From Trueperaceae bacterium (lineage in GTDB: Bacteria; Deinococcota; Deinococci; Deinococcales; Trueperaceae): DNA of 54,571 nt. The DNA lies in the NCBI GenBank assembly GCA_035703635.1, contig DASSXV010000027.1, positions 1 to 54,571 on the forward strand, read 5' to 3'. The first letter of the stretch is position 1, and each line of letters opens with the position of its first letter. The notes under the pieces were generated by a model. The model was not told the DNA's origin and searched no databases. It saw only the letters and a list, made by a program, of their open reading frames with translations. Position numbers and translations under genes: made by a program. This document shows positions 12,057 through 49,549 of the stretch, one piece after another.

Positions 12057-12980
12057 TCACTCCGCCCCTAGACTCCTAAGCGCAAGCCGCACGTTGTCAG
12101 CGTGGTCGGCTAGCGCCGCTCGCGCGCGCTCGGCGCTCACGTCTGCCTTGGCTGCCACGATGGCGCAGCGGATGTTTCCCCCGCACGCCTCCAGCGCAGT
12201 AGATGCCGCCGCCTCGTCCACCTGGGCGCCTTGCGCCACGATCTTCACGGCCCTCACGCGCAACTTGGCGTTGACGGGGCGCATGCCGACCATGAGGTTC
12301 TCGTAAGCGCCGCCTAGACGAACGAGCGCCGTGGTCGAGAGCGCGTTGAGCGCTACTTTCTGCGCCGTGCCGGCTGCAAGGCGCGTGCTGCCAGCAAGGA
12401 CTTCAGGTCCCGTCTCCAACAGCACGCCGACCTCGCCTGCGGTGAGGAGCGGGGTGTCAGGGTTGTTGGCGATGCCCACGGTGAAGGCGCCCAAAGCGCG
12501 CGCGCGCCGCACTGCCGCTACGGTGTATGGCGTGGCGCCGCTGGCCGCCACGCCGACAAGTGCGTCTAGCGCGCCGACGCCGATGGCCGCTACGTCCTCT
12601 GCCGCAGCGAGCACGTCGTCCTCGGCGCCTTCTTGTGCGCGGCTCTGCGCCGTACTGCCGCCAGCTAGGAGGGTGGTGGCGTGATCGAAGCCGAAGGTAG
12701 GGGCGAGCTCCGCTGCGTCTTGCAGTCCGAGCCGGCCGGACGTTCCAGCGCCAGCGTAGATGAGGCGGCCGCCCCGCCGCAGGCGCTCCTCGACCCCGGC
12801 GACCGCGCGCTCGAGTTCAGGTAGCGCGCGCTCGACGGCGTCGACGGCGCGGCGGTTCGAAGCGGTGATGGCCCTGAGGATGTCGGCGGCCGGCCAAGCA
12901 TCGAGGCCAGAGTAGTCGGCGGCGGCGGCCTCGGTGGCAGCGTGGGCGTCTAGAGCTATGGGCCGCGCCGCATCGCTCAT
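12057..12980 (-). CDS. murQ: N-acetylmuramic acid 6-phosphate etherase
   Basis: GAGTSGRLG, EGAED, AASGATPY, GPEVLAGSTRLAAGTAQK. ATG 12980 overlaps the upstream stop (ATGA). Confidence 0.93.
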   Translation of the reverse strand: MSDAARPIALDAHAATEAAAADYSGLDAWPAADILRAITASNRRAVDAVERALPELERAVAGVEERLRRGGRLIYAGAGTSGRLGLQDAAELAPTFGFDHATTLLAGGSTAQSRAQEGAEDDVLAAAEDVAAIGVGALDALVGVAASGATPYTVAAVRRARALGAFTVGIANNPDTPLLTAGEVGVLLETGPEVLAGSTRLAAGTAQKVALNALSTTALVRLGGAYENLMVGMRPVNAKLRVRAVKIVAQGAQVDEAAASTALEACGGNIRCAIVAAKADVSAERARAALADHADNVRLALRSLGAE

Positions 12981-13984
12981 AACTCCCCCTCCGTGCGCTG
13001 GTACGTGCGCCACACCCGGGCTCCAAGCTTGCCGTAGAAGGTCGTTAGCGTCGTCCAGTTGATCAGCAAGTCGGTGGCGCCGCGCTCCTGTAGCCACTGC
13101 GCGCCCGCGCGCACGATGGCCAACCCAAGGCCGGCGCCGCGCACCTCGCCTGAGACCCCTAGCGGCCCCATGCCGGCAACGCGCACGGGGCCGACGTCGC
13201 TGGTTAGCGCGCTGCGCCAGTAGAGGCTGGGACCAAGGAAAGCCTCCTCACCCTGGAAGACTGCGCAGAACCCGTAGGCTTCTGCCGAGTCTCCGGCGGC
13301 GGTGTCGGCCTCCCTCGCTATGGTTAGGACCGTGCTGCCGGCCGCGATGTAAGCCTCCAGCTCGTGGGTCCAGCGGCCAGGGAAGGTGCGGGCAACGAAG
13401 CGCATGGCGCCGTCCGGGTCGTCGCTTCGTACCCGCCAACCGGGCGCGAGAGGCGCTGGCGGCAGCGGGCGGCGCAGGTCGATGTGGAGGTCGTGCTCCG
13501 CCGCCGTGAAACGCGCACCCGCGCGGCGAGCTAGCAGCCACAGCGCGGCTGAGGACTCTTGCGGCGGCCCAGGAAGGAGGTGGTTGGCGTCGCTACCCAA
13601 CTTGAAGCGCGTGGCGCCCGCGGCGCGCAGCCGCGCCAACAACTCGGCGAGTAGGCGCGTGCCGATCCCCCTGCCCTGCCGGGTCGCGGCGACGGCCAGT
13701 AGCGTCACCCACCCGACGTCCTGCGGTTGCCACGCCGCCGTCGGCAGGCGGCCGTAAGCCACGCCAACCAGCTCGTCCGCCTCGAAGGCGCCGATGAGCA
13801 GGTCAGGCTGATGGTGAAGCGCGAGGCGCTCGCGCCAGACGCGCTCCTCAAGCGGGTACAGCGTCACCTGGCCCCAGGCGGAGGCCCATAGCGCTGGCAC
13901 CGTGGCCGCCTCGGCTGGCGTTAGCTCGCGGATGGTCGCGGCGGTAGGCCGAGCGCTGGTTGAGTTGGCGTGCTGTTCGGTCAC
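12977..13984 (-). CDS. Tandem-GNAT acetyltransferase (GlmA/Ngs1-like, putative amino-sugar N-acetyltransferase)
   Basis: Two acetyl-CoA motifs (RQGRGIG and GPLGV...RGAGLG), plus LGSDANHLLPGPP and INWTTLTTFYGKLG; coupled between gntR and murQ. Confidence 0.75.
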   Translation of the reverse strand: MTEQHANSTSARPTAATIRELTPAEAATVPALWASAWGQVTLYPLEERVWRERLALHHQPDLLIGAFEADELVGVAYGRLPTAAWQPQDVGWVTLLAVAATRQGRGIGTRLLAELLARLRAAGATRFKLGSDANHLLPGPPQESSAALWLLARRAGARFTAAEHDLHIDLRRPLPPAPLAPGWRVRSDDPDGAMRFVARTFPGRWTHELEAYIAAGSTVLTIAREADTAAGDSAEAYGFCAVFQGEEAFLGPSLYWRSALTSDVGPVRVAGMGPLGVSGEVRGAGLGLAIVRAGAQWLQERGATDLLINWTTLTTFYGKLGARVWRTYQRTEGEL

Positions 13985-14727
13985 TGCGCCCTCAAATCAA
14001 GCGCCATGCGGTAGCGGTCGCCGCGGTATGCGCTGCGCACGTACTCGAACGGGCGCTCGTCGGTTCCGTAAGTCGTGCGTTCCAGGGCAAGCACCGGCAC
14101 GCCCTGGCCGATGCCGAGGGTAGCGGCCTCGCTGCGCGTCGGTGGGCGAGCGCCGATGGTTTGGCGCGCACGCACCGGCCGGATGCCGAACTGCAGCTCG
14201 AGGGTCCGGTACAGCGAACCCGTGCGCTCCAGCTCGGTGGTAGAGAGCGTGATGAGCTGCGTAGGCAGGTGCGCTTCCTGCAGCGCAAGCGGCTCGCCGT
14301 CTGCCGTACGCAGGCGGGTTACGCGCAAGACCATGGCGCCAGGCTGCAGCTCGAGCGCGGCGCTCGTGGGCTCGTCCGCCACGACGCGCTCGACCCGCAC
14401 GATGCGCGCGCCTGCTTTGAGGCCCAAGTTGCGGGCCTCCTCAGTGAAGCCGAGCACGCGGTCGATGATCTGCTCGAGCGGCTGTCCCTTCACGTACGTG
14501 CCTGAACCCTGGCGCTGCTCGACACGGCCAGCTTTCGAGAGCTCCTCGAACGCGCGCCTCACCGTCATGCGAGACAACCCAAGCCCGATGGCTAGGCCGC
14601 GTTCAGATGGCAGCGCGCTACCAGGGCTCATGTGGCCAAGCTCGATGGCGCGAACCAGCTGATCCTTCAGCTGCAGGTACGCGGGTGTTGGCAGCGCTTT
14701 GTCGATCCGGATCTCGCTGAGCCTCAT
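13981..14727 (-). CDS. GntR/HutC-family regulator with UTRA domain (NagR/DasR-like)
   Basis: PAYLQLK, LPSERGLA...SRMTVRRA, QGSGTYV; UTRA segment SLYRTLE...YRGDRY. Confidence 0.9.
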   Translation of the reverse strand: MRLSEIRIDKALPTPAYLQLKDQLVRAIELGHMSPGSALPSERGLAIGLGLSRMTVRRAFEELSKAGRVEQRQGSGTYVKGQPLEQIIDRVLGFTEEARNLGLKAGARIVRVERVVADEPTSAALELQPGAMVLRVTRLRTADGEPLALQEAHLPTQLITLSTTELERTGSLYRTLELQFGIRPVRARQTIGARPPTRSEAATLGIGQGVPVLALERTTYGTDERPFEYVRSAYRGDRYRMALDLRAQ

Positions 14728-14791
14728 GACTTGCCGTGGTCCCTTCCAGTAGCGCGGGGGCGCCCGAACGGGTGAGTGAATTGCCTTGGAG

Positions 14792-14809
14792 CGTACCACT
14801 GCTATACCA
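14792..14809. promoter_or_regulatory. Candidate GntR operator, copy 1
   Basis: CGTACCACTGCTATACCA, 16/18 identical to 44452-44469. Confidence 0.6.
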
Positions 14810-14970
14810 TCAGTCAACCTCCGCGGTTCTCGTTAGCGTCTATGGTGACGCTGCGGGGCAAGAGTGGCTGCTCCCTGACTACTGATCGGCGCCCGGGCAG
14901 CGCTTCAGTGGTCTCTAAGTGGCCTATCTTGGAGGTAGTACTTCTGGCTCGTAGGAACAAGGAGGCATGA

Positions 14971-16737
14971 ATGCCACGCAAGACGTTCACCACGCTTCTT
15001 CTCGCCCTGACACTCGTCGCGGGCGGAGCCGCGTTCGCGCAACCGAAGGTAGTCGACTACCCCGGCCTCGGCATGACGCCAGGCAACGTGGGCGGCACCA
15101 TCACCCTCGGTCTCGCAGACTCGCCGCCCACTTTCCTCTACTACGCCCAGATCGACAACAACACCCAGACCCTGACGGGAGTCGTGTTCGACTCGCTCGT
15201 CGAGTTCAACCTCGAGACCTACGCCATCGAGCCTGGCCTCGCCGCCAGCTGGGACGTCAGCCCGGACGGCACCGTGTACACCTTCCACCTGCGTCAGGGC
15301 GTCACCTGGCACGACGGCACGCCGTTCACCGCGGCGGACGTCATCTTCACGTACACGCAGATCATCGCCAACCCGGAGGCGCGCGCCGGCGACGCCGCCG
15401 CGTTCGTGTTCACGGTTGACGGCGAACAGCGCCCCGTCACGTTCGACGCCCCAGACGACGCCACCGTCGTCATGACGCTCCCGGCGCCAGCGGCGGCGTT
15501 CCTGCTGCAGCAGCGCTTCCCGATCATGCCGAAGCACAAGCTCGTCAAGTTCTCGGTCGAGGGCGGCGCAGCGCAGGCAGACATCAACAACGGCTGGGCG
15601 ACGGACACCCCCTTGTCCGAGATCGTCGGCACCGGGCCATTCATGTACGACACCTACGTGGCTGGCCAGAAGGTTGGCCTCGTGCGCAACCCGAACTACT
15701 GGAAGGTAGACGCGGCCGGCACTAGCCTCCCGTACGCCGAGCGCCTCGATTACCTCGTCGTGCGTGGCAACGAAGCGCAAGCTGCGCAGTTCCTCGCAGG
15801 CAACCTCGCCACGCTGAACATCTCTGGCGCCCAGTTCCCAGACTTCAAGAGCCGCGAAGTTGCCGGTGCGGACTTCCGCGTCGTCACCAGCCCCGCCCTC
15901 TTCGGCTCGCCGCCCCATATCGCCTTCAACTTCGACGACTCGCAGTTCGCAGCCGAGTTCTCCAACGTGGCCTTCCGTCGCGCCATGGAGCAGGCCGTGG
16001 ACCGCCAGCGCATCATCGACGACGTCTACAACGGGCTCGCCGAGATCCCAGGCACCCCAACGGCGCCAGCAGACGGCACCTTCTACGAGGACACGAAGAG
16101 CCTCATGTTGCCGTTCGACCTGACCGCCGCCGCCGCCGCCCTTGACGCTCTCGGCATCAAGGACACCAACAATAACGGCGTGCGCAACGTGCCCTCCGGC
16201 GCCGAACTCGAGTTCTCACTCACCTACAACTCCGACTCGAGCACCTTCACGGACATGGCCACCATCTTGCAGAATGACTTCGCCAAGATCGGCGTCAAGG
16301 CCAACCTCGTCGGCGTGCAGGGCTCTGCCCTGCTCTCCACTGGCCTCGCAGGCGACTACCAGGCCATCATCATCGCGTTAGGCAACCAGCCCGACCCGGA
16401 ACTCCGCAAGCCGATCTGGCAGCCTGGCGGCTCGCTCTACTACTGGCACCGCTCCACGCAACCAGCAGTGCCGGGCGGCCCAGCCAACTTCGCGGCCATG
16501 GCCGATTGGGAGAAGCGCATCTACGACATATTCGACCAGGGCACTACCCTCGTCGACCGCGACGCGCGCATAGCTCTCTACAAGGAATGGCAGCGCATCA
16601 ACGCCGAGATGGTGCCCGTCATCATGATCGCCAAGCCGGCCAACATCGCCGCCGTGCACGCCAGCATCGGCAATTACGTCTACAACCTGGGTGTCATCCC
16701 CGGGTACAACCCCGTCCCGCTCTACTTCGTCGAATAA
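14971..16737 (+). CDS. ABC transporter substrate-binding protein (family 5, OppA/DppA-like)
   Basis: Signal peptide (AFA-Q); LAASWDVSPDG, LRQGVTWHDG, GTGPF, RNPNYWK. Confidence 0.92.
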   Translation: MPRKTFTTLLLALTLVAGGAAFAQPKVVDYPGLGMTPGNVGGTITLGLADSPPTFLYYAQIDNNTQTLTGVVFDSLVEFNLETYAIEPGLAASWDVSPDGTVYTFHLRQGVTWHDGTPFTAADVIFTYTQIIANPEARAGDAAAFVFTVDGEQRPVTFDAPDDATVVMTLPAPAAAFLLQQRFPIMPKHKLVKFSVEGGAAQADINNGWATDTPLSEIVGTGPFMYDTYVAGQKVGLVRNPNYWKVDAAGTSLPYAERLDYLVVRGNEAQAAQFLAGNLATLNISGAQFPDFKSREVAGADFRVVTSPALFGSPPHIAFNFDDSQFAAEFSNVAFRRAMEQAVDRQRIIDDVYNGLAEIPGTPTAPADGTFYEDTKSLMLPFDLTAAAAALDALGIKDTNNNGVRNVPSGAELEFSLTYNSDSSTFTDMATILQNDFAKIGVKANLVGVQGSALLSTGLAGDYQAIIIALGNQPDPELRKPIWQPGGSLYYWHRSTQPAVPGGPANFAAMADWEKRIYDIFDQGTTLVDRDARIALYKEWQRINAEMVPVIMIAKPANIAAVHASIGNYVYNLGVIPGYNPVPLYFVE

Positions 16738-16757
16738 CGACTGGCTAACCAACACCA

Positions 16758-16791: not shown

Positions 16792-16813
16792 CATCTAGAG
16801 TGGAGACCAGCTT

Positions 16814-17785
16814 ATGTTCGCCTACCTGATCAGACGCGTGCTGATCATGCTCCCGACGATCCTCCTGGTGTCTGTCGTCTGCTTCATCGTCATCCAAGCG
16901 GCGCCCGGTTCGTTCACGGACCGCTACCTGGAGGACCCGCGCATGGGGCCAGAGGCCGTCGTGCGCATCAACGCGCAACTCGGCCTCGACAAGCCCCTCG
17001 CGCAGCAGTACCTCCGCTGGGTCAGCGGCATCGTCACGCGCCTCGACTTCGGTTACAGCTTCTTCGCGAACCGCCCAGTCTCGACCGTCATCGGCGAGCG
17101 GCTCTTCTGGACCGTCGTCGTGGCGGGCATAACCATGCTCTTCTCGTGGCTGGTGGCCGTTCCGCTCGGTATCTTCACGGCGCTGCGGCGCAATGGGTTC
17201 ACGGACGCCGTCGCCAGCTTCATCGGCTACGTCGGCCTCGCCGTTCCCGACTTCCTTATCGCACTCCTGCTCATCGCCCTCGTGCTGCAAACGGGCGGCA
17301 CGCAAGTCGGTGGGTTGTTCAGCCCCAAGTACATCGGCGCGCCATGGAGTTGGGACAAGTTCCTCGACTTCCTCAACCACATGTGGATCCCAATCCTCGC
17401 CATCGGCACCACCGGCGTGGCTTCCGTCATGCGGCAGATGCGCGCGAACCTACTGGACGTCCTCAACGCCGATTACGTGCGCACCGCGCGCTCGAAGGGC
17501 CTCCCGGAGCGCCGCGTCATCAACCGCCACGCAGTGCGCACCGCCATCAACCCCCTTATCTCCATGCTCGGCCTCAGCCTCCCGGAACTCATAAACGGCA
17601 CCATCATCGCGAGTATCGTCCTCAACCTGCCGACCATCGGTCCGCTCCTGTACGACTCGCTCCTCGCGAAAGACCAGTACGTCGCTATGTCGCTCCTCCT
17701 CCTCGCCAGCGCGCTGCTCATGGTCGGCAACCTCCTCGCCGACCTGGCTCTCGCGTGGGTCGATCCGCGGATCCGCTATGACTGA
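16814..17785 (+). CDS. ABC transporter permease (OppB/DppB-like)
   Basis: DFGYSF, DYVRTARSKG EAA-type loop, VDPRIR C-terminus. Confidence 0.92.
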   Translation: MFAYLIRRVLIMLPTILLVSVVCFIVIQAAPGSFTDRYLEDPRMGPEAVVRINAQLGLDKPLAQQYLRWVSGIVTRLDFGYSFFANRPVSTVIGERLFWTVVVAGITMLFSWLVAVPLGIFTALRRNGFTDAVASFIGYVGLAVPDFLIALLLIALVLQTGGTQVGGLFSPKYIGAPWSWDKFLDFLNHMWIPILAIGTTGVASVMRQMRANLLDVLNADYVRTARSKGLPERRVINRHAVRTAINPLISMLGLSLPELINGTIIASIVLNLPTIGPLLYDSLLAKDQYVAMSLLLLASALLMVGNLLADLALAWVDPRIRYD

Positions 17786-18887
17786 CGCCCAGGCGGCCGC
17801 GCCGGCAGCGGTCAAGACCGAGTTCGGGCCCAGCCAGCGCGTCCTCGCGTGGCGGCGCTTCACGCGCTCGCGCACTGGCGTCATTGGCGCCGTCATCCTC
17901 GTGCTCCTCTACCTGACGGCGGCAACGGCGGAGTTCCTCGCCCCGTACGAGGTCACCACGCAGCACCGCGCCGTCTACCAGCCGCCGCAACCCATCAGGG
18001 TGTGGCACGAGGGGCGGTTGACGTGGCCGTTCACGTACGCCATGCAGCAAGAGCGCGACCCCGTTACTTTCCGGCGCATCTTCGCCCCAAACTTGGAGGA
18101 ACCGCTACCACTGCGCCTGTTCGTCAAGGGAGAGAAGTACACCTTCTTGGGGCTCTTCGCCACCGACCGTCACCTCTTCGGCGCCGTCGGCGGCGACTAC
18201 TACCCGCTCGGCACGGACCGCTTCGGGCGCGACCTCTTCTCACGCATGCTCGTCGGGTCCCAAGTCTCGCTCACGGTGGGGCTCATCGGGATAATCATCT
18301 CGTTCGGAATCGGCATCCTCGTCGGTGGCCTGAGCGGTTACTACGGCGGCTGGGTCGATCAGGTGCTGCAACGCCTCGTCGAGGTGCTGCTCAGCTTCCC
18401 GCGTATACCCATCCTGCTAGCCTTGGCGACCGTCATCCCCACTACCTGGCCGTCTACTTACGTCTACCTTGGCATCGTCGTCGTGCTCGCCTCCATCGGC
18501 TGGGCCGGGCTCGCGCGGGTGGTGCGCGGGCAGGTGTTGGCCGTGCGCGAGACGGAGTTCGTGACGGCGGCAAGGGCGCTCGGCGTGCGCGACCTCACCA
18601 TCGTCATCAAGCACGTCGTGCCGAACCTCGCCTCCTACCTCGTCGTGGCCGCCACCCTCGCGCTGCCCGGTTACATCCTGGGCGAGAGCGCGCTGTCGTT
18701 CCTCGGCCTCGGCGTCAAGGAGCCCATGACGTCGTGGGGCCTGCTCCTCAAGGACGCGCAGAACTTCGAGTCGCTGCGGCTATACCCCTGGCTGTTGGCG
18801 CCAGGCGCCCTCATCGTCATCTCGGTGCTGGCGTTCAACTTCGTTGGCGACGCCCTGCGGGACGCCGCCGACGTGAGATCGAGGTGA
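17778..18887 (+). CDS. ABC transporter permease (OppC/DppC-like)
   Basis: LGTDRFGRDLFSR, EFVTAARALG, ESALSFLGLG, FVGDALRDA. Confidence 0.92.
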   Translation: MTDAQAAAPAAVKTEFGPSQRVLAWRRFTRSRTGVIGAVILVLLYLTAATAEFLAPYEVTTQHRAVYQPPQPIRVWHEGRLTWPFTYAMQQERDPVTFRRIFAPNLEEPLPLRLFVKGEKYTFLGLFATDRHLFGAVGGDYYPLGTDRFGRDLFSRMLVGSQVSLTVGLIGIIISFGIGILVGGLSGYYGGWVDQVLQRLVEVLLSFPRIPILLALATVIPTTWPSTYVYLGIVVVLASIGWAGLARVVRGQVLAVRETEFVTAARALGVRDLTIVIKHVVPNLASYLVVAATLALPGYILGESALSFLGLGVKEPMTSWGLLLKDAQNFESLRLYPWLLAPGALIVISVLAFNFVGDALRDAADVRSR

Positions 18888-18891
18888 CCAA

Positions 18892-20421
18892 GTGAACAAG
18901 CTGCCGCTGATGATCGACCTGTCCGCGCCCGCCCTCACCACGGCCGAGCGCGAGTTCCTCGCAGAGGGGCGCGTGGCAGGCATCTGCCTGTTCGGGCGCA
19001 ACGTTATCGACCGCTATCAGCTCGCGGACTACCTGGCAGAGGTGCAGCAGGTGGCTGGCGGCGACCTGATCGTGGCCGTCGATCAGGAGGGCGGTGGTGT
19101 GCTGCGGCTGCTCGACGTGCCTTTCCCACCCCCGGCCATGGCGCTCGGCGCCGCAGACGACGTGGCGTTGACCGAGGCGGTCGCCGCCGCCACCGGCCGA
19201 GCGTTGGCGGCCGTTGGCATCAACCTCGACTTCGCGCCCGTCGCAGACGTCAACTCCAACCCACTCAACCCCGTGATCGCCGACCGGTCGTTCGGTGCGG
19301 ACCCGGCCCTCGTCGCCCGCCACGTCGCCGCCTTCGTGCGCGGCCTGCAGTCAGCCGGGGTGGGCGCCACCCTCAAGCACTTCCCTGGGCACGGAGACAC
19401 GAACCTCGACTCTCACCTCGCGCTGCCCGTAGTGGACCGCTCGCTAACTGAACTGCGGGCAACCGAGTTCGTGCCCTTCCGCGCTGGCATAGCTGCTGGC
19501 GCCGCCGCCGTCATGAGCGCCCACATCGTGCTCCCAAGCCTCGACCCTGACCTGCCTGCCACCCTCTCGCGCCGCGCGATGTACGGGCTGCTGAGGAACG
19601 AGCTCAGCTTCGACGGACTAAGCGTCACGGACGCCCTCGACATGCAAGCCATAGCCCAGCGCTACGACGCCGGCCGCGCCAGCGTCATGGCGTTGGCCGC
19701 GGGGGTCGACCTGCCCCTCACGCTCGGACCGATCGAGCAGCACCGGGCGACCGTCACAGCGATCGAGGCGGCCGTGGCATCCGGCACGCTAGGCAGAGGC
19801 GAGGTGGCCGTCGCCAGTGGGCGCATCGCTGCCTTCGTCAGCGCCTACCCAGCTAGTCCGAGTGGCGGCAACCTGGGCCCCGTCGAGGTCGCCGACCGCG
19901 CCACCATGGCCACCGCGACGAAGCGCGGGCTCGTCAGCATCGGCGCCTTGCCGCGCTTGCGGCCAGGTGACCGGGTAGCGTTGCTCGCTATGTCGGCCGT
20001 GCGCGCCAACGCCGCCAGCCAACTGAGCGCCAGGCCTGCGGACGCCCTCGTCGACGAGCTAACGCGCCGGGGCGCGCAGGTGCTACGCCACGACCTCCTC
20101 TGGGGCGAGGCGAACGACCCAACGCCGTGGCTAGGTGGGCTCGGCCTCGTGCCAGACGCCGTCATCTACGTCTCGACGAGCCGCACCCGCGTGGCGCCAG
20201 GCGAAGTGACCGCCGCACGCGCGGCGGCCGCGTGGGCGCGCCACGCGGGCGCAGCGTTCGGTCACGTTGCGCTCTGGAACCCGTACTCGACCGAACTCGT
20301 GCCTGGCCCTGCCCTGCTGGCATTCGGGTACCGCGGGACCGCCGCTGCCGCTGTAACCGACGTCCTCTTCGGTGAGGCTGCCACCGGCACGTTGCCCGTA
20401 CCGCTCCGGCCTGCGTCCTAG
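18892..20421 (+). CDS. nagZ: GH3 beta-N-acetylglucosaminidase, cytoplasmic, two-domain
   Basis: DQEGG, KHFPGHGDTNLDSH (NagZ His/Asp dyad), TDALDM nucleophile; no signal peptide. Confidence 0.9.
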   Translation: MNKLPLMIDLSAPALTTAEREFLAEGRVAGICLFGRNVIDRYQLADYLAEVQQVAGGDLIVAVDQEGGGVLRLLDVPFPPPAMALGAADDVALTEAVAAATGRALAAVGINLDFAPVADVNSNPLNPVIADRSFGADPALVARHVAAFVRGLQSAGVGATLKHFPGHGDTNLDSHLALPVVDRSLTELRATEFVPFRAGIAAGAAAVMSAHIVLPSLDPDLPATLSRRAMYGLLRNELSFDGLSVTDALDMQAIAQRYDAGRASVMALAAGVDLPLTLGPIEQHRATVTAIEAAVASGTLGRGEVAVASGRIAAFVSAYPASPSGGNLGPVEVADRATMATATKRGLVSIGALPRLRPGDRVALLAMSAVRANAASQLSARPADALVDELTRRGAQVLRHDLLWGEANDPTPWLGGLGLVPDAVIYVSTSRTRVAPGEVTAARAAAAWARHAGAAFGHVALWNPYSTELVPGPALLAFGYRGTAAAAVTDVLFGEAATGTLPVPLRPAS

Positions 20422-34729: not shown

Positions 34730-34844
34730 CAGATCTGGTCGATCAGGGGCCCTGAGCAGGCGTTGCGACGCTCCATTCTAAAGTGCGCTGCCCGGCATCA
34801 TGTAACGAGTCTCGTGGCGAGGGAGGGTGGTATGTGTGAGCGCC

Positions 34845-40152: not shown

Positions 40153-40262
40153 GGCCCAAGTGTAGGGGCTGGCGGGGCGGCTCACGTTAGAGCGCCCAAG
40201 CCCAAACTTTAATGTGAGGCGCTTCACTTTTCGCGTGCCGCCTGCGTAAGGAGGTCTCGGAG

Positions 40263-40937
40263 TCACTCGGCCATCAGCAGCTTGAACGCTGCGTCATTAG
40301 ACACGACCCGTGCCACCGTGAAGCTCCCCTCGACCGCCAAGGCGTCGTCTGGGTTGTGCACCACGTCGTAATCGGTCTGGTAACTGAGAGCGCCGCTGAA
40401 CGTGCCGCTAACTGCAAGGGTGACGTCGTCGACTACGGTTACCTCGAGCAGCTCGAAGACGCGTTCCGTGAACGCGTAGTAGTCGTCGTAACTGCTGCCA
40501 CGCGGATAGAACTTGAGTTCGACGTCCGCCTCCTCGAGGAGCTCCAATGTCTCGGGGTCGAGGGCGAACTGAAGCATGAACGAGCCGATGTCGCTGCGTT
40601 CGGGATGGTGGGTGCGCGTGCTGAGGGTTACGTACAGGGTAGGGGGCGTAAGCACCGTGGTACCCAGCTTCATCTCGTCTACATGCATGAAACTGGCCGA
40701 GTGTTGCGTGGTGCCAGCGATGGCTTCGAGGATGGCGCGCACGCGCTCGTCCTCCTCCCCGTCTGCAACGTCTGCCGGCACCTCGGTGGCGTAGGTGTAT
40801 GCGTGGAAGGCGCCTTCCCCGATGATGGCGTCGACGGCGCCCGTCTCGAAGGTAGGGTGCTGGGCGGCCGCTATGCCGACGAGCAGGCAGAGAGCCGTGA
40901 GCACGGCGGTGCCGAGGTTGCGCGACGAAGTGAACAT
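40263..40937 (-). CDS. Hypothetical exported acidic protein
   Basis: Signal peptide (AAA-Q); Asp/Glu-rich; no family recognised. Confidence 0.65.
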   Translation of the reverse strand: MFTSSRNLGTAVLTALCLLVGIAAAQHPTFETGAVDAIIGEGAFHAYTYATEVPADVADGEEDERVRAILEAIAGTTQHSASFMHVDEMKLGTTVLTPPTLYVTLSTRTHHPERSDIGSFMLQFALDPETLELLEEADVELKFYPRGSSYDDYYAFTERVFELLEVTVVDDVTLAVSGTFSGALSYQTDYDVVHNPDDALAVEGSFTVARVVSNDAAFKLLMAE

Positions 40938-41061
40938 GGTGGTGGGCCTTTCTTGCTGGGAAAATTGTTCGCGTGAACTACATGCATTATCGGTCAGTTG
41001 CATGTGTCCGTGCCGCAAGAGTTGTCACTCGGGTTCAGTCTTGCGCCGCTCCAAGTTGCGC

Positions 41062-41901
41062 TTAGGCGTCTCGCAACGTCGGGTCGAGCAAGTCGCGCAG
41101 GCCGTCTCCGAAGAGGTTGAAGCCGAACGACGCCAGCAAGATGGCCGCGCCAGAAAACACCGACACCCACGGCGATAGCAGCATGGTGCCGCGGCTCTCG
41201 GAGAGCATGAGGCCCAACGACGGCGTCGGCGGTTGGGTGCCAAGCCCGAGGAAGCTGAGGGACGCCTCTACGAGGATCGCCGTTGAGAGCGACAGCGTCA
41301 CCTGCACGAGGATGGGCGCCATGACGTTGGGCGCAACGTGCTTGCCGAGGACGCGGCCCGCCCCGCCGCCTAGTGCTCGAGCCGCCGCGACGTAGTCCCA
41401 ACTCAGCACCGTGAGAGCCGGCCCCCGCGCTAGGCGCGCGAAAACCGGGGTGTAGACGAGTCCGATCGCTAACCCCGTGTTGAAGGCGCCTGGCCCGAGC
41501 ACGGCCAGCACCCCGATGGCGAGCAAGATGATCGGGAAGGCGAGCAGTACGTCCATGACGCGCATGATGATGCGGTCGCGCCAGCCGCCCCAGAACGCGG
41601 CGAGCAGTCCGAGCGTCCCGCCGACGATGGTGGCGATGCCAACCGCGCCAAGGCTGACGAGCACGCTGGTGCGGTAGCCGTACAGGATCCTCGAGAGGGT
41701 GTCGCGCCCGAAGTTGTCCGTGCCGAGGAGGTGCTTGACGCTCGGTCCCTGGAAACGCTCGCGGATGGCTTGCGCGAGGGGGTCGTACGGCGCCAGCCAC
41801 GGGCCCGTAAGAGCCGCGAGCACGACGATGGCGGCGATGACGAAGCCGATGAAGCCAACGCGGTTGCGCCACAGGCGGGTGAAGAAGCGCCGCACGCTCA
41901 T
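41062..41901 (-). CDS. ABC transporter permease (DppC-like)
   Basis: LGTDNFGRD, DYVAAARALG, EASLSFLGLG, GDGLRDLLDP. Confidence 0.92.
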   Translation of the reverse strand: MSVRRFFTRLWRNRVGFIGFVIAAIVVLAALTGPWLAPYDPLAQAIRERFQGPSVKHLLGTDNFGRDTLSRILYGYRTSVLVSLGAVGIATIVGGTLGLLAAFWGGWRDRIIMRVMDVLLAFPIILLAIGVLAVLGPGAFNTGLAIGLVYTPVFARLARGPALTVLSWDYVAAARALGGGAGRVLGKHVAPNVMAPILVQVTLSLSTAILVEASLSFLGLGTQPPTPSLGLMLSESRGTMLLSPWVSVFSGAAILLASFGFNLFGDGLRDLLDPTLRDA

Positions 41902-42848
41902 GAGTACTCCACGCGCGGGTCGATCCAGGCGTAAGCGAGGTCGACGAGCAGGTTGACGACGACGAAGACGGCCGTGACGATCAGGACTACCCCCTGCAGG
42001 AGCGGGTAGTTGCGTTCGTTGATGGCGCCGAGCATGAGGCGGCCGATGCCGGGGATGGCGAACACCTGCTCGATGACGACGACCCCTGAGAGGAGGTAGC
42101 CGAGCTGCACGCCAACCACGGTGATGACGGGGATCATGGCGTTACGCAACGCGTGCTTGTAGAAGAGGCCGCGCTCGCCGACGCCCTTGGCGCGAGCGGT
42201 GCGTACGTAATCGGAAGATAGGACCTCGAGGAGGCCGGAGCGCAAGATGCGGGTCAGGCCGGCCACCATCGGCAAGCTCACGGCAACGGTCGGGAGCGCC
42301 ACGCGCGCCAGGTTGCCGAGCGGGTCGGTGGTGAACGGCACGTAGCCGATAGCCGGCCACCACGGCAGGTAGAGGCTGAAGAAATAGAGGAACAGCACGC
42401 CGACCCAGAAGGACGGCAGGGTGAGGCCGATGATGGTGAGGACCCTCACGAGCACGTCCCCGCTAGTGCCTCTCGCCCGCGCGGCGAGGACGCCGAGCGG
42501 GAACGAGAGGACGATAGCGAGGACGAGCGCGAGGAACGTGATCTCGAAGGTGGCGGGCAGCCGCGCGGTTATCTCCTGCAGGACGGGGGTGCCGGTCCAG
42601 ATGCTCGTGCCGAGGTCGCCTCGCAGCGCCGCCTTCAGCCAGTTCCAGTACTGCTCGTACACGGGGAGGTCGAGGCCGATCTGGCGCCGCAACGCCTCCA
42701 CGCGGTCGGGCGTGATGTCGGTGTTGGCGCCAAGCATGATGGCGACGGCGTCACCGGGTATGAACCGCACCATCGCGAACACTAGCAGCGACACTCCGAA
42801 GAGCACGACCACCAGGTCGAGTAGGCGCCTTACGAGGTACTGGAACAA
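41898..42848 (-). CDS. ABC transporter permease (DppB-like)
   Basis: GDLGTS, DYVRTARAKG, EQVFAIPG, IDPRV; TTG start. Confidence 0.92.
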   Translation of the reverse strand: MFQYLVRRLLDLVVVLFGVSLLVFAMVRFIPGDAVAIMLGANTDITPDRVEALRRQIGLDLPVYEQYWNWLKAALRGDLGTSIWTGTPVLQEITARLPATFEITFLALVLAIVLSFPLGVLAARARGTSGDVLVRVLTIIGLTLPSFWVGVLFLYFFSLYLPWWPAIGYVPFTTDPLGNLARVALPTVAVSLPMVAGLTRILRSGLLEVLSSDYVRTARAKGVGERGLFYKHALRNAMIPVITVVGVQLGYLLSGVVVIEQVFAIPGIGRLMLGAINERNYPLLQGVVLIVTAVFVVVNLLVDLAYAWIDPRVEYS

Positions 42849-42859
42849 GGCTCAGGGTT

Positions 42860-44359
42860 TCAGTGCAGTTCGACCTCGCGCAGGTAGCGCAGGCCGCGAG
42901 TCGGGAGTTGCTTGAAGCCCGTGACCTGGTCGGATACGGCGCTGAAGAGCGTGCCGTACGCCACGTGAGCGATGGGGCCGTTGCATGCGAGGCGCTTCTG
43001 CAGGTGGTCGTAGATGTTGACGCGCTCGGTGCGGTCGGTGGTGGTGCGGCCGAGTTGCAGGAGCTCGTCGACGGCGGGGTCGGAGAACTTGTAGACGTTG
43101 GTGGAGCCGCCCGTCACGAAGGTGCGGTAGAGGTAGCCGTCCGGATCGGTGGCGCCGCCGTTGAGGCTCACGAAGGTGTCGAAGTCGGAGTTGCGCCACG
43201 CCTGCACGAACGCGCCGAACTCGGCGACGTTGATGGCGAGGCGGACGCCGACCTCTGCTAGTTGCGCTTGCAGGACCTGGGCCGCGTCCGACACGACCTG
43301 GATGGTGCCGAACGTGAGGAGGCCGGCGTCGAAGCCGTTCGGGTAACCGGCCTTGGCGAGGAGTTCGCGCGCCTTGTCCGGGTTGCTGGCGTAGCAAGGG
43401 AAGTTGGAGACGGGGGTCGCCCACTGGACGAGGCCTGGGCTAAGGGGCCCGCCCTCGACGGCGTTACCGAAGTAGACGGCGTCGATCAGTTCCTCGCGGT
43501 CGATGGCGTAGTTGATGGCCTCGCGCACTAGCGGGTCGTTGAATGGCGCGCGGCTGACGTTGAAGCCGAGCAGGGTGTATGCGAGGTCCTGGACGCCCAT
43601 GAGCGTCACGCCCCGTGCGCCCTTCAGGGTCTCGGCGGTGGCCGGGTCGACGTCGGGGATGATGTGGTACGTGCCGTTGCGCATGCCGGCCGCGCGCGTC
43701 GACGCCTCGGGCACCACGTTGTAGCGCAGCTCGGCGACCTTCGGTTCGCCCGGGCGGTAGTAGTCGGGGTTGGCGACGAGCAGGACGTAGGTGTCAGGGA
43801 CGATCTCTTTGAGCATGAACGGCCCGGTGCCGACGGCGACCTGCTGCAGGCTTCCGCCGTTGGCTTCGACGACCTCTCGCGGGACGACCGTCAAGTTGGT
43901 GAGGTTCGCTAGGAACGGCGCGAACGCCACCTTGAGGGTGAAGGTCACCTCTAGTGGGCCGCTAGCCACGACGGAGTCGACTTCGGTGAAGCGGCTGGCC
44001 TGCGGTGAGCCCGTGTCCGGGTTCATGATGCGGTCGTACGAGTAGACGACGTCGTCCGCCGTCATGAGGCGGCCGTTGTGGAACTTGACGCCGTCACGCA
44101 ACTGGAACACGTAGGTGAGGCCGTCTGGCGAGACGGTCCAGCTCGTCGCGAGGGCGGGGTCGAGGCCGAGGTCCGCGTTGGCCTCCAGCAGGCCGTCGTA
44201 AACCTGGCCGATGACGGCGAAGGAGGAGAAGGCCGTGACGATGTGCGGGTCGAGGCCGACCGGCGCCTGATCGACGGCCAGCTCGACGCGGCCTTGTTGA
44301 GCGAAGGCGATGCCGAGTAGTGCGGCGAACGCGATGAGGAGGAGTTTCGTTCTGCTCAT
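42860..44359 (-). CDS. ABC transporter substrate-binding protein (family 5)
   Basis: Signal peptide (AFA-Q); LATSWTVSPDG, LRDGVKFHNG, GTGPF; GGAAGGA RBS. Confidence 0.92.
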   Translation of the reverse strand: MSRTKLLLIAFAALLGIAFAQQGRVELAVDQAPVGLDPHIVTAFSSFAVIGQVYDGLLEANADLGLDPALATSWTVSPDGLTYVFQLRDGVKFHNGRLMTADDVVYSYDRIMNPDTGSPQASRFTEVDSVVASGPLEVTFTLKVAFAPFLANLTNLTVVPREVVEANGGSLQQVAVGTGPFMLKEIVPDTYVLLVANPDYYRPGEPKVAELRYNVVPEASTRAAGMRNGTYHIIPDVDPATAETLKGARGVTLMGVQDLAYTLLGFNVSRAPFNDPLVREAINYAIDREELIDAVYFGNAVEGGPLSPGLVQWATPVSNFPCYASNPDKARELLAKAGYPNGFDAGLLTFGTIQVVSDAAQVLQAQLAEVGVRLAINVAEFGAFVQAWRNSDFDTFVSLNGGATDPDGYLYRTFVTGGSTNVYKFSDPAVDELLQLGRTTTDRTERVNIYDHLQKRLACNGPIAHVAYGTLFSAVSDQVTGFKQLPTRGLRYLREVELH

Positions 44360-44451: not shown

Positions 44452-44469
44452 CGTACCATTGCTAGACCA
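44452..44469. promoter_or_regulatory. Candidate GntR operator, copy 2
   Basis: CGTACCATTGCTAGACCA; its right part continues CTAGACCAGT, matching the right half of the DasR/NagR dre consensus. Confidence 0.6.
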
Positions 44470-44496
44470 GTAATGCATGGGGTGATAGCCTGCCGC

Positions 44497-45591
44497 ATGC
44501 CAGCAAGCTCGACTGATGACGCGTTCGCACCCGAGGCGCAGGCCGCGGCCCGCGCCGTGGCCGCAGCCACCCCTCTGCTCGAGGCGGCGGTCGCCGCGCG
44601 CGTAACGCCCGGCGCCGTGCTGCAGGTGGCGGGGCCAGCCGGGGCGGGTGCCGTGGTGGCCGTAGGCGCAGAGGGTTACGGGGGTGCCGCCGTGGAGCCG
44701 GGCACCGCGTACGACCTCGCGTCCCTCACCAAGGTCACGGCCTGCCTACCGGCCCTGCTCCACTTGATAGACAACGGCGCCGTGCGCTACAGCGACCGCG
44801 TCGACCGCTTCTTCAGTAACGCAGGCTGGATGCAGGAGCCGTCCCTCGGCGGCGTGACCGTGGCCGACCTCGTCCTCCACCGTTCCGGCCTGGCCGCTTG
44901 GCGTCCGCTCTTCGCTACGGTGCGTGGTCGCGAGATGGTGCTCGCCAACGTGCTGCAGTCGAGTCTGTGCGAAGAGAGGGGCTTGAACGTCTACTCCGAT
45001 CTCGGCGTCATCGTGCTCACGGCCATCATCGAACGCGCGGCAGGCATGCGCCTCGACGACTTCGTGTGCACGCACGTCTACGCGCCGCTTGGCATGAACG
45101 CAACGCGCTTCGGCCCGCTCGGCGAGGGCGCTGGCGTAGCCGCCACCGAGGATGACGGCCTGCGCGGCCTGCTCGTTGGCCGCGTGCACGACGAGAACGC
45201 GGACGCCATGGAGGGCGTCTCCGGTCACGCGGGCCTGTTCGGCACGGCGGCAGACCTCACGAGTTACGGGCAGGCGTGGCTGCGTTTCTCCGGACCGTTC
45301 TCTAGTCCGGAGACCATGCGCTACGCCGTGACCGACTTGTCTGACGGCGAGGGGGTGCGGCGCGGCGTCCTCTGGCGCCTCGCGGCCGAAGGGTGGCCGT
45401 TCGGTGGCGGCTTCACGCCAAGCGCCTTCGGGCACACGGGTTTCACTGGCACGAGCATCGTGATCGACCCCGAGCTGGGTTGCGTCGCGACGCTGCTGAC
45501 TAACCGGGTGCACCCACGGCGCGGGTCGGCGGACGGCATCGTGCGCCTGCGGCGGGCCGTGCACGTAGCGGTCGCGGAAGCCTTCGCGTGA
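44497..45591 (+). CDS. Beta-lactamase-family serine hydrolase (possible AmiE-like muropeptide amidase)
   Basis: DLASLTKV, YSDLG, GRVHDENA, SGHAGLF, FGHTGFTG, LTNRVHP; coupled to anmK. Confidence 0.85.
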   Translation: MPASSTDDAFAPEAQAAARAVAAATPLLEAAVAARVTPGAVLQVAGPAGAGAVVAVGAEGYGGAAVEPGTAYDLASLTKVTACLPALLHLIDNGAVRYSDRVDRFFSNAGWMQEPSLGGVTVADLVLHRSGLAAWRPLFATVRGREMVLANVLQSSLCEERGLNVYSDLGVIVLTAIIERAAGMRLDDFVCTHVYAPLGMNATRFGPLGEGAGVAATEDDGLRGLLVGRVHDENADAMEGVSGHAGLFGTAADLTSYGQAWLRFSGPFSSPETMRYAVTDLSDGEGVRRGVLWRLAAEGWPFGGGFTPSAFGHTGFTGTSIVIDPELGCVATLLTNRVHPRRGSADGIVRLRRAVHVAVAEAFA

Positions 45592-46751
45592 GCGGCCTCC
45601 ACGACCTGCCGGCCGCGACGGTGCTTGGCCTCATGTCTGGCACCTCGCTTGACGGGGTAGACACGGTCACCGTCCGCCTCGAGCGCGTTGCGGGCCGCTT
45701 CGCCTGGCGCGTGCTCGGGCGCTCGGTTCACGACTATCCAGCCGAACTCTCGAGGCGCCTGCACCTCGCGCTCAAGCCGGCTACCTCTGACGTCCTTCTC
45801 CTTACGGAGTTGCACCAGGAGGTCGGGCAGTTCTACGCCGAGGTGGTGGCCGCGGCGCAGGCCGAGCACGCTCTCGACCTCGTTGCCTTGTCCGGGCAGA
45901 CCGTCTATCACATTCCCCGTGCAGACGAAGCGCGCGGCTGGCGCGTCAAGAGCACCTTGCAGTTGGGTGAGGCCACCGTCGTCACCGAGCGCTGCAAGGT
46001 GGCGACCGTCTCCGACTTCCGCCAGTCCGACCTAGCTGCCGGTGGCCAAGGCGCGCCGCTCGTTAGCTTCCCGGACTCGCAGCTCTATGCCGCGCCAGGT
46101 GTGGCGCGCGTGGTGGTCAACCTCGGCGGCATCGCGAACGTGACCTACCTGCCAGCCAACGGCGACCCGAACGGCGTTATCGCCTTCGACACCGGGCCGA
46201 GCAACTGCCTGATGGACGAGGCCATGACGAGGTTCGCCGGGCGGCCATACGACGCTGGCGGCCAGGTGGCGCTCTCGGGCGTCGTCGACGAGGGGGCCCT
46301 TGGGCTTCTACTTGCAGAACCGTACCTGCAGCTCTCGCCACCCAAGACGACTGGGCGCGAGCTCTTCTACCTCGACGCCGCGCTCGAGCGCGGTTGGTCC
46401 GGAGCGGCGCCCGCGCTGCCGACCCTCATGGCGACCCTCGCCGCGTACAGCGTGCGGAGCCTCGTGGCGGCGGTGGAGGCGGAACTGCGGCCACTCGGCA
46501 TAGATGAGGTGCTCGTGGCTGGCGGCGGCGCGCGCAACCCCGCCCTGTTGGGGGGACTGGCGCGGGAGCTAGGTGTTCCGGTGCGTTCCTTCGCGGAACT
46601 CGGGTATGACGACAAGGATCGCGAGACCCTCGCGATGGCCGTCATGGGCTACCTGGCGGTGCATGGCGAACCTAATGTTTTGCCGTCTGCGACGGGCGCG
46701 CGGTGGCCGGTGGTGGCTGGCAAGGTGGCTCGGCCGTGGAGCGGGCGCTAG
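45588..46751 (+). CDS. anmK: Anhydro-N-acetylmuramic acid kinase
   Basis: GLMSGTSLDGVD, GQTVYH, GGQGAPLV, NLGGIAN, DTGPSN, PPKTTGRE, GGGARN. Confidence 0.94.
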   Translation: MSGLHDLPAATVLGLMSGTSLDGVDTVTVRLERVAGRFAWRVLGRSVHDYPAELSRRLHLALKPATSDVLLLTELHQEVGQFYAEVVAAAQAEHALDLVALSGQTVYHIPRADEARGWRVKSTLQLGEATVVTERCKVATVSDFRQSDLAAGGQGAPLVSFPDSQLYAAPGVARVVVNLGGIANVTYLPANGDPNGVIAFDTGPSNCLMDEAMTRFAGRPYDAGGQVALSGVVDEGALGLLLAEPYLQLSPPKTTGRELFYLDAALERGWSGAAPALPTLMATLAAYSVRSLVAAVEAELRPLGIDEVLVAGGGARNPALLGGLARELGVPVRSFAELGYDDKDRETLAMAVMGYLAVHGEPNVLPSATGARWPVVAGKVARPWSGR

Positions 46752-47000
46752 CGCGCCGGTCCAATCGTTGTACCAGGTCAAACAAGTACGACGGTAACTG
46801 TCGCAAGGGCATGTGAGTATGTCTCCAACCGCGCGGATGAGTCAGTGTTCGGGGGAACCGACGAGACCGCGCGGCTCTTTCTTTCAGGGCTCCACCATGG
46901 TCTCAACCACCGAAGACAACCGCTGACGGTCGTTGGCGGCTACCCTAGGGCAGGCGGCGGCGCTTGTCAGTGCGCCAGGGGCGCCGGTTTGAGAGATGAC

Positions 47001-48638: not shown

Positions 48639-48640
48639 CC

Positions 48641-49549
48641 CTACTCCTTGGCGCGCGCCAGTTCGGCGGCCGCCTCCACCGGCTCGCGCGTGGTGACGCT
48701 GAAGTGCGTTCCTGACGGCAGGGCCGCGGCCAGGGCCGACGTCAGCGGGGCGCCGCAGCGGGCCACGCCGCCTGCCAACACGACCGGCAGGACCACCCCG
48801 AGCCGGCCGCTGACGACGCGCGCTAGGCGCGCTAGTTCCGCACCGGCTGCGGCGAGCACGGCGGCGGCGTCGGCGTCGCCGCGCGCGGCGGCAAGCGCCA
48901 CGAGCGGAGTGAGGGCGGCCACGCGCGCCCTACCTCCCGCGTAGACCTCGCGACGGACGGTGGCCCAATCGTTACCCCCGAGAGCAGCGTAGATGCCGTT
49001 GGCTAACGCGCCGCCTGGCGGGGCGCCCTGCTCATCTGCGCGGCGCAGCACGCGCTTGAGGGCCTCGCGCCCGATCCAGTAACCGCCGCCGCCATCGTCG
49101 ATGAGGTAACCGTGGCCGCCCACGCGCACGGCTTGGCCGTTTCTTGCTAGGTGGAAGCCGATGCTGCCGGTTCCGGCGTAGATCAGTATGCCAGCGCCCG
49201 GCTGGAAGGCCGCGAGGTAGGCGGTGTGAACGTCAGGCATGACGCGTACGGCCGCAGGCGGCAGTGCGAGGCTGGTGGCGATGGTGGAGGCAAGCAACTC
49301 GGCGTCAGGCGAGTCCGGCTCGAGCCCCGTGATTCCCGCCACGACCCTCTGTGGCCTTGGGCCGATCGCGGCGGCGCGGCTAGCGAGCTCCTCCAGTCGT
49401 TGCAGGGCGGCGCTGCGCTCTTCTGTGCGGAGTTGGATGGCGGAGAGCGGGCCGCCCGCGCCACGCGCCAGTTCGGTGCCCGCTTCATCGACCAACAGCC
49501 ACCTGGTGCTCGAGCCGCCGGCATCTATGCCCAGGAACGCGTCAGCCAC
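48641..49549 (-). CDS. BadF/BadG-family amino-sugar kinase (GlcNAc/MurNAc kinase-like)
   Basis: GIDAGGSST, YAGTGS, VGGHGYLIDDGGGGYWIGR, LAGGV. Confidence 0.85.
   Translation of the reverse strand: MADAFLGIDAGGSSTRWLLVDEAGTELARGAGGPLSAIQLRTEERSAALQRLEELASRAAAIGPRPQRVVAGITGLEPDSPDAELLASTIATSLALPPAAVRVMPDVHTAYLAAFQPGAGILIYAGTGSIGFHLARNGQAVRVGGHGYLIDDGGGGYWIGREALKRVLRRADEQGAPPGGALANGIYAALGGNDWATVRREVYAGGRARVAALTPLVALAAARGDADAAAVLAAAGAELARLARVVSGRLGVVLPVVLAGGVARCGAPLTSALAAALPSGTHFSVTTREPVEAAAELARAKE

Follow-up and report, generated by a model that had tools for sequence, protein, structure and literature searches.

How does a bacterium take up and process cell-wall fragments when neither the permease AmpG nor a transporter of the phosphotransferase system (PTS) is found in its genome? 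The question is raised by a 54,571-nucleotide stretch of a Trueperaceae genome (contig C55 of the assembly, referred to below as the window), in which genes for MurQ, NagZ and AnmK accompany genes for two ATP-binding cassette (ABC) importers of the Opp type. In E. coli, these three enzymes are cytoplasmic and convert GlcNAc-anhMurNAc, the disaccharide of N-acetylglucosamine (GlcNAc) and anhydro-N-acetylmuramic acid (anhMurNAc), to GlcNAc-6-phosphate. Here we report that a regulon for the uptake and catabolism of peptidoglycan fragments probably comprises three loci in this genome, two of them in the window. The synteny of these genes in relatives, a conserved operator, and the pattern of AmpG, AnmK and the binding protein SBP_A in the phylum support a co-regulated salvage pathway that is independent of AmpG and the PTS and processes its substrates in the cytoplasm.

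An earlier interpretation made from the letters of this DNA (the sequence-only reading) had proposed such a hybrid of ABC import and cytoplasmic processing. Synteny, the operator and the phylum sample favor the proposal, and the ligands that it gave to the binding proteins stand as predictions. That reading saw two loci, both of which we recovered; it missed a third locus on another contig and the absence of ATPase genes. The system is broader than it appeared, comprising three loci and being conserved across the phylum.

Genes of the two loci

We established the identities of the genes in the window by Pfam and NCBIfam profile scans. All the genes that the sequence-only reading had named in the two loci, and a BadF-type kinase beyond them, were confirmed in place, as follows.

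Locus A
12057–12983, minus strand: murQ, MurNAc-6-phosphate etherase (MurNAc, N-acetylmuramic acid); open reading frame (ORF) open to 13097, likely start ATG 12983
12977–13984, minus strand: two-domain GNAT acetyltransferase; Pfam Acetyltransf_1 at residues 48–132, weak C-terminal GNAT matches at 270–309
13981–14727, minus strand: gntR, HutC-subfamily GntR regulator, NagR/DasR-like; Pfam GntR and UTRA, ORF to 14817, likely start ATG 14727
14971–16737, plus strand: SBP_A, family-5 periplasmic binding protein; Pfam SBP_bac_5
16814–17785 and 17778–18887, plus strand: importer A permeases, OppB-type and OppC-type; Pfam BPD_transp_1, BPD_transp_1_N and OppC_N
18892–20421, plus strand: nagZ, GH3 beta-N-acetylglucosaminidase; NF003740 at 216.7 bits (cut-off 207)

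Locus B and kinase
41062–41901 and 41898–42848, minus strand: importer B permeases, OppC-type and OppB-type, by Pfam
42860–44359, minus strand: SBP_B, DppA/GsiB-like family-5 binding protein; Pfam SBP_bac_5
44473–45591, plus strand: serine hydrolase of the beta-lactamase fold, cytoplasmic; Pfam PF00144, ORF start 44374, alternative start 44497
45588–46751, plus strand: anmK, anhydro-MurNAc kinase; Pfam AnmK at 273.6 bits, NCBIfam AnmK models up to 363 bits
48641–49549, minus strand: BadF-family (BcrAD/BadF-type) sugar kinase; Pfam BcrAD_BadFG

The ligands, transport functions and enzyme activities that we assign to all these proteins are predictions from sequence. MurQ scored 328 bits against NCBIfam NF003915 (cut-off 168), with the match beginning at ORF residue 52, and scored under the equivalog cut-off of TIGR00274. 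NagZ contains KHFPGHGDTNLDSH, which we take to be the Asp-His signature of NagZ. AnmK passed the Pfam cut-off and stayed under every NCBIfam AnmK cut-off. The solved relatives of the BadF-family protein include a MurNAc/GlcNAc kinase (8zo3) and GlcNAc kinases, and we predict it to be a NagK/MurK-like kinase of GlcNAc and/or MurNAc. The GNAT protein fell only into generic GNAT clusters in the ESM Atlas; it is our guess that it re-acetylates de-N-acetylated sugars or acetylates amines of released peptides.

Search for AmpG, the PTS and other recycling genes

The source genome comprises 2.9 Mb in 88 contigs and is 97.65% complete. The AmpG model TIGR00901 gave no match at E ≤ 0.001 in the whole genome, and the PTS EIIC family PF02378 gave no match there either, indicating that neither MurP nor NagE is present. 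Thus, the lack of ampG and murP that had been read from the window extends to the genome. AmpD-type Amidase_2 (PF01510) and LdcA (PF02016) likewise had no match in the genome, and the best genome match to the Mpl model TIGR01081 reached 120 bits (cut-off 388.7). The sequence-only reading had also suggested looking for nagA and nagB. NagA is present in two copies, and NagB may be among three genes of the Glucosamine_iso family, which also holds 6-phosphogluconolactonases. Three SLT-domain genes and one MltG gene are able to make anhydro ends.

All counts for the phylum come from one sample of 251 Deinococcota genomes, source genome included, that was common to all searches; they are descriptive and carry no statistical test, related genomes not being independent. 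AmpG over the family cut-off was found in none of the 251 genomes, which gave only two weak MFS matches. AnmK was present in 182 genomes, Amidase_2 in 53, and an orthologue of SBP_A (E ≤ 1e-120, identity ≥ 52%) in 140. By family code, the SBP_A orthologue occurred in 33 of 69 genomes of f1, 78 of 103 of f2, 23 of 61 of f3, none of 12 of f4 and all 5 of f5. SBP_A and AnmK were found together in 137 genomes, SBP_A without AnmK in 3, AnmK without SBP_A in 45 and neither in 66. The SBP_B orthologue (E ≤ 1e-110) was present in 61 genomes; AnmK lies within 3 kb of it in 38 of these and at 5.5 kb in one (hand tally). Of the remaining SBP_B genomes, 9 have SBP_A no more than 5 kb away, about 10 show no linkage, and 3 or 4 are without coordinates to judge.

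Synteny of SBP_A with wall-salvage genes in relatives

We collected 80 SBP_A-centered loci through alignment of SBP_A homologues, drawn from Trueperaceae, Deinococcus species, other Deinococcales and one Armatimonadetes metagenome-assembled genome (MAG), and mapped the window proteins onto them by tblastn; the window proteins themselves are closest to those of Trueperaceae MAGs. The numbers of loci holding each gene were as follows.

Importer and regulator genes, MurQ and NagZ: PermB 76 and PermC 68 (both placed after SBP_A), GntR 56, MurQ 46, NagZ 34
Other genes: GNAT 32, AmiE-like hydrolase 24, AnmK 16, BadF kinase 12, NamZ 3

At least one of MurQ, NagZ, the AmiE-like hydrolase, AnmK, NamZ and BadF was found in 62 of the 80 loci; among the 41 loci flanked by 5 kb or more on each side, 35 held such a wall-salvage gene. 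The test of synteny in relatives that the sequence-only reading had called for therefore came out in its favor, and the two loci were even found joined. Loci A and B are fused in six relatives (L020, L028, L035, L036, L055 and L091), and the hydrolase and AnmK genes stand directly upstream of SBP_A in L020, L028, L035, L036 and L055. In L036, a single stretch carries MurQ, GntR, importer B, the hydrolase, AnmK, importer A, NagZ and BadF. These fused clusters suggest that the split into two loci in the window is a local interruption of one functional cluster.

A direct-repeat operator common to both loci

The sequence-only reading had noted an 18-bp motif in both divergent intergenic regions. 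This motif is real: CGTACCACTGCTATACCA at 14792–14809 and CGTACCATTGCTAGACCA at 44452–44469 are identical at 16 of 18 positions, a value reached in 1 of 300 mononucleotide shuffles of the two intergenic regions. By-eye alignment (footprinting) of orthologous upstream regions gave two conserved elements between gntR and SBP_A, and the motif belongs to a direct-repeat operator, TGGTMT-N5-TGGYMY, in which TGGT[A/C]T hexamers are spaced by 11 bp. The window holds three such sites.

14793–14809, minus strand: operator O1, TGGTATAGCAGTGGTAC, read towards gntR; contains the 18-bp motif
14909–14925, plus strand: operator O2, TGGTCTCTAAGTGGCCT, 46–62 nt upstream of the SBP_A start codon
44453–44469, minus strand: operator O3, TGGTCTAGCAATGGTAC, between SBP_B and the hydrolase

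The pattern TGGTMTNNNNNTGGYMY has three exact matches in the whole 2.9-Mb genome, namely O1, O2 and O3, and each of these falls in one of the two divergent intergenic regions; in ten first-order Markov genomes, between 0 and 3 scattered matches occurred per genome. O1 is conserved in orthologous intergenic regions, an O2-type site stands 39–71 nt upstream of SBP_A in many relatives, and in L020, L028, L036, L041, L055, L063, L071, L077 and L079 equivalents of O3 precede AmiE-like, AnmK or SBP_B genes. In 1.26 Mb of related loci, 60 of the 62 exact matches lay within 400 nt upstream of SBP_A, GntR, AmiE-like, AnmK or SBP_B genes. Part of the design of the pattern came from the SBP_A upstream regions, which are also included in this count; the sites before the hydrolase, AnmK and SBP_B in relatives had no role in its design. 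As seen in orthologues, O2 appears to lie between weak -35 and -10 hexamers.

The co-regulation of loci A and B that had been proposed is thus supported by the operator in both intergenic regions and its conservation in relatives, and we infer that the GntR protein of locus A, a predicted repressor of the regulon, is the partner of this operator. Among solved proteins, this regulator is most similar to B. subtilis YvoA/NagR (141 bits), followed by S. coelicolor DasR (127 bits). DasR and NagR recognize the half-site TGGTCT, and their dre consensus is palindromic. The Trueperaceae system resembles their regulons in the GntR and UTRA domains of its regulator and in its theme of amino-sugar uptake and catabolism. 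In contrast to them, its operator is a direct repeat with 11-bp spacing, and its regulon would be centered on MurNAc-containing fragments.

A third locus with importer C and NamZ

Scanning the genome with one mismatch allowed gave 81 further operator matches, chance-like by eye. The sole credible one among them, judged by flanking similarity and by the genes that it precedes, is a site at C57:7275 with extended similarity to O1 and the same GTCAAC tail (context ATACCAGTTGCGTCAAC). It lies 89 nt upstream of the gene for SBP_C, a family-1 sugar-binding protein, which is followed by two permease genes and then by the gene for NamZ, an exo-beta-N-acetylmuramidase (PF07075).

C57:2912–7291 (loci L089 and L090): third regulon locus, outside the window

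Relatives link these genes to the other two loci. The gene order in L012 is importer A, NagZ, importer C, NamZ and BadF, and that in L093 is GntR, importer C, NamZ and BadF, then importer B, the hydrolase and AnmK; L091 and L092 have similar arrangements. NamZ was found in 55 of the 251 Deinococcota genomes, and a hand tally places it no more than 10 kb from SBP_A, SBP_B or AnmK in 27 of these 55.

All three binding proteins carry signal peptides, those of SBP_A and SBP_B both ending in AFAQ. NagZ, the serine hydrolase and NamZ have none as judged by eye, which points to processing in the cytoplasm.

Binding proteins, permeases and shared ATPases

SBP_A is a predicted receptor for fragments of the GlcNAc-(anh)MurNAc type. 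Its best solved relative is 5ipw, a putative oligopeptide binder, followed by SPH1118 and the alpha-galactoside protein AgpA; the Vibrio chitin-oligosaccharide binder CBP ranks lower, under several peptide and heme binders, and nickel binders are likewise among the solved relatives. This mixture leaves room for the idea that importer A and NagZ serve to take up chitobiose or other GlcNAc oligomers, like the Vibrio chitin-oligosaccharide ABC system, and that the linkage to MurNAc genes reflects merely shared amino-sugar catabolism under a NagR/DasR-type regulator. Sugar binders are indeed found among the relatives of SBP_A, with the Vibrio protein at lower rank, the GlcNAc regulators NagR and DasR are the nearest relatives of the GntR protein, and the operator half-site resembles their TGGTCT. 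However, SBP_A orthologues adjoin genes specific for MurNAc (MurQ in 46, the AmiE-like hydrolase in 24, AnmK in 16 and NamZ in 3 of 80 loci), and 137 of the 140 SBP_A-positive genomes hold AnmK. No chitinase was seen among the annotated genes of the window or the few ORFs scanned in gaps of relatives, where no dedicated search was made. We therefore consider chitobiose uptake unlikely, and the same holds for an origin of the linkage in shared amino-sugar catabolism.

A second SBP_A paralogue (46–54% identity) is present in the same operon in Deinococcus-like and f3 relatives (L057, L060, L078, L084, L091 and L092), and it adjoins NamZ in L084, L091 and L092. The pair suggests two receptors on one permease pair.

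The permeases scored 239 and 279 bits with the Opp4B and Opp4C models versus 146 and 114 bits with YejB and YejE, and the importer B permeases accompany SBP_B in L028, L036, L063, L091 and L093. No ATPase gene was found in locus A or B or in the gaps of relatives that we examined. The genome contains about 29 OppB-type permease genes versus four oligo_HPY ATPase genes, which form two OppD/OppF pairs (C32 and C16), so that sharing of ATPases looks like a general habit of this genome. Most of its Opp-type importers are without ATPases of their own. Relative to PermC_B (279 aa), PermC_A (369 aa) contains about 100 additional residues after its OppC_N segment and before the transporter core; the two ATPase-linked paralogues from C32 and C16 give alignments of similar length.

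SBP_B, whose nearest solved proteins are 5u4o, HbpA, AgaA, DppA and GsiB, is predicted to be a receptor for anhMurNAc-peptides or a related small fragment. In an alignment with E. coli DppA (8z1y_F), SBP_B has a Gly in place of a specific Asp that, we presume, binds the free amino group at the amino terminus of the peptide in DppA. As a weak argument, this Gly would suit an N-acylated ligand such as a MurNAc-peptide.

The same residue bears on a further explanation, namely that these are ordinary peptide or nickel importers that stand beside wall genes by chance and share a motif by coincidence. With about 29 OppB-type permease genes in the genome, some chance adjacency is expected; NCBIfam matches to peptide and nickel families do occur, at sub-threshold scores only, and the 16/18 motif match taken alone has a shuffle frequency of 1/300. 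The synteny held across three families of the phylum, the uniqueness of the operator to these loci in the genome, its conservation in relatives, and the Gly of SBP_B where DppA has the Asp that we take to hold the peptide amino terminus all oppose such an explanation, and we consider it very improbable.

The serine hydrolase and the proposed pathway

The stop codon of the serine hydrolase gene overlaps the start of AnmK, and the two form an operon. The protein carries SLTK, YSD and HTG, the three motifs (SxxK, YxD and HTG) of penicillin-recognizing serine enzymes. From its fold and context, we predict it to be an AmiE-like (anh)MurNAc-L-Ala amidase; B. subtilis AmiE presumably has the PF00144 fold as well. 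O3 ends 4 nt before ATG 44473, the start used by gene callers (372-aa form), so that either the transcript is leaderless or translation begins later, at 44497.

In the pathway that we propose, a NagR/DasR-like GntR repressor would bind the direct-repeat operator in front of four operons of the window (gntR-GNAT-murQ, SBP_A-permeases-nagZ, SBP_B-permeases and hydrolase-anmK) and of a fifth operon on C57 (SBP_C-permeases-namZ). The periplasmic binding proteins would pass cell-wall fragments to the ABC permeases, and these would borrow ATPases encoded elsewhere, the two OppD/OppF pairs being the candidates for the Opp-type importers A and B. NagZ would take off non-reducing GlcNAc and NamZ non-reducing MurNAc, and the serine hydrolase would cut the stem peptide from (anh)MurNAc, which is the job of AmpD in E. 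coli. AnmK would then convert anhMurNAc to MurNAc-6-phosphate, and the BadF kinase would phosphorylate GlcNAc and perhaps MurNAc. MurQ would yield GlcNAc-6-phosphate, which NagA and NagB, encoded elsewhere in the genome, would feed into metabolism or wall synthesis. The identities of the genes, their synteny, the conservation of the operator and the negative searches for AmpG, the PTS and AmpD are observations; what the three binding proteins bind, the amidase function of the hydrolase, the pairing of repressor and operator and the sharing of ATPases are predictions.

Several observations weigh against this pathway or parts of it. In the phylum sample, 45 of the 182 AnmK-positive genomes are without SBP_A, so that SBP_A is not the sole route in the phylum, and 6 of the 41 well-flanked SBP_A loci (L024, L040, L065, L067, L076 and L083) hold no wall-salvage gene. 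Three Amidase_3 genes in the genome could strip peptides outside the cell. Exact and one-mismatch genome scans found no operator upstream of the BadF kinase or at NagA or NagB. The sequence-only reading had called the two intergenic regions divergent promoters; such promoters are predicted from the orientation of the genes only, and no sigma-70-like site turned up when both regions were scanned for consensus promoters. The nearest solved relatives of SBP_B bind peptides, glutathione or opines, and SBP_B could import free stem peptides instead of MurNAc-peptides. The hydrolase matches PBP4B weakly (107.7 bits, cut-off 385), and a single solved protein is related to it, also weakly; its activity could be that of a carboxypeptidase or an aminopeptidase.

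The same machinery might serve mainly for catabolic feeding on the wall debris of other bacteria and not for recycling of the cell's own wall. Such scavenging of necromass is possible, though on balance doubtful. Without an Mpl over the cut-off and without LdcA, the re-ligation of stem peptides known from E. coli would not be possible; NamZ and a MurK-like kinase act on the non-anhydro MurNAc products typical of lysozyme digestion; NagA and the Glucosamine_iso-family genes, with a possible NagB, permit full catabolism; and three different importers suggest a broad substrate range. However, AnmK and the cell's own lytic transglycosylases suit the products of self-turnover equally well, and GlcNAc-6-phosphate needs no Mpl to return to wall synthesis. 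One cell could fill both roles, and sequence cannot tell one from the other.

Returning to regulated uptake with cytoplasmic processing, we propose tentatively, and with slightly more doubt than confidence, that much of the AmpG-less Deinococcota uses a lineage-specific set of up to three dedicated ABC importers, all-cytoplasmic processing, NamZ and an amidase of the penicillin-binding-protein fold under one NagR-like repressor that reads a direct-repeat operator. The three importers would be a sugar-type family-5 system with NagZ, a DppA-like system for anhMurNAc-peptides with AnmK, and a family-1 system with NamZ. If this is true, it would provide the first cytoplasmic NamZ exo-muramidase and a serine amidase of the penicillin-binding-protein fold that does the job of AmpD.

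Comparison with known systems

ABC import of muropeptides is already known, and the Deinococcota system would be a non-orthologous variant of it. Excerpts of Gilmore and Cava 2022 (PMC9790009) describe A. tumefaciens YejBEF-YepA as a peptide-type ABC importer with a family-5 binding protein that takes up muropeptides, in a lineage that is without AmpG and keeps NagZ and other recycling enzymes; in these excerpts, the authors describe YepA as exclusive to Alphaproteobacteria. The Trueperaceae system, known from its genes alone, is like the one in these excerpts in combining a peptide-type ABC importer and a family-5 binding protein in an AmpG-less lineage. The differences are that its permeases are not Yej orthologues by their NCBIfam scores, that its operons contain no ATPase gene whereas YejF is in the operon in A. 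tumefaciens, that its importers, three versus one, are clustered and co-regulated with the enzymes, and that no link to AmpD, AmpR or AmpC was seen in it.

B. subtilis has a murQ-murR-murP-amiE-nagZ-namZ rescue operon, in which, according to excerpts of PMC8054146 and PMC5061867, monosaccharides enter through the PTS transporter MurP; AmiE, NagZ and NamZ are secreted (PMC8054146, excerpts). As far as these excerpts describe it, this operon shares with the Trueperaceae system MurQ, NagZ, NamZ and the role of an exo-amidase, clustered with an uptake system and a regulator. In contrast to that operon as excerpted, the three enzymes here have no signal peptides, giving the opposite topology, uptake would be by ABC importers with no PTS, AnmK is added, and the regulator is of the GntR/HutC type and not an RpiR-type MurR.

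The AmpG-AmpD-NagZ-AnmK-MurQ recycling of E. coli, with MppA-Opp for peptides, is described in excerpts of PMC13691567 and PMC5061867 and is otherwise general knowledge. Measured against this description, NagZ, AnmK and MurQ are all present here and an Opp-type importer would take part, whereas AmpG, AmpD, LdcA, Mpl and MurP were not found and a serine hydrolase would stand in the place of AmpD.

The sequence-only reading knew of no such combination in Deinococcota. In literature mostly outside subscription journals, we likewise found no description of peptidoglycan recycling in this phylum; the precedent for ABC import of muropeptides, YejBEF-YepA as described in the excerpts of PMC9790009, had been missed. 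Fragment recovery or feeding by AmpG-less bacteria is known for few lineages, and YejBEF-YepA is the one ABC route that has been proven. The presence of SBP_A in 140 of 251 genomes suggests that Deinococcota have a solution of their own, independent, based on ABC importers and widely conserved. The system supplies candidate receptors, a candidate non-AmpD amidase, a predicted cytoplasmic NamZ and a defined operator, and these candidates are accessible in cultivable Deinococcus, Meiothermus-like or Truepera strains. It would also offer new binding-protein scaffolds for MurNAc-containing ligands and an example of many Opp-type importers running on few shared ATPases.

Neighboring genes in the window

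The genes between loci A and B encode a two-component system, a P-type ATPase, an MFS transporter, an Mrp antiporter, a MarR regulator and an MMPL protein. The MFS transporter (27309–28637) was considered as a substitute for AmpG and rejected; it had no match to the AmpG model, and its NCBIfam matches are weak and to other MFS families.

Downstream of importer B, two minus-strand ORFs for exported proteins (39418–40266 and 40263–41018) had no Pfam match even at E ≤ 5. The first is LolA-like (lipoprotein-sorting) in the ESM Atlas and has homologues in the SBP_A loci L010, L016 and L025. We excluded both ORFs (39418–41018) from the system, judging them likelier to be tied to the adjoining MMPL gene (37088–39352).

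The window also encodes a second cytoplasmic protein of the beta-lactamase fold (34827–36335, plus strand, 502 aa), with weak matches to D-aminopeptidase and AmpH and no operator nearby. Its homologues sit between PermC_A and NagZ in L016, L025 and L038, and it may process stem peptides that contain D-amino acids.

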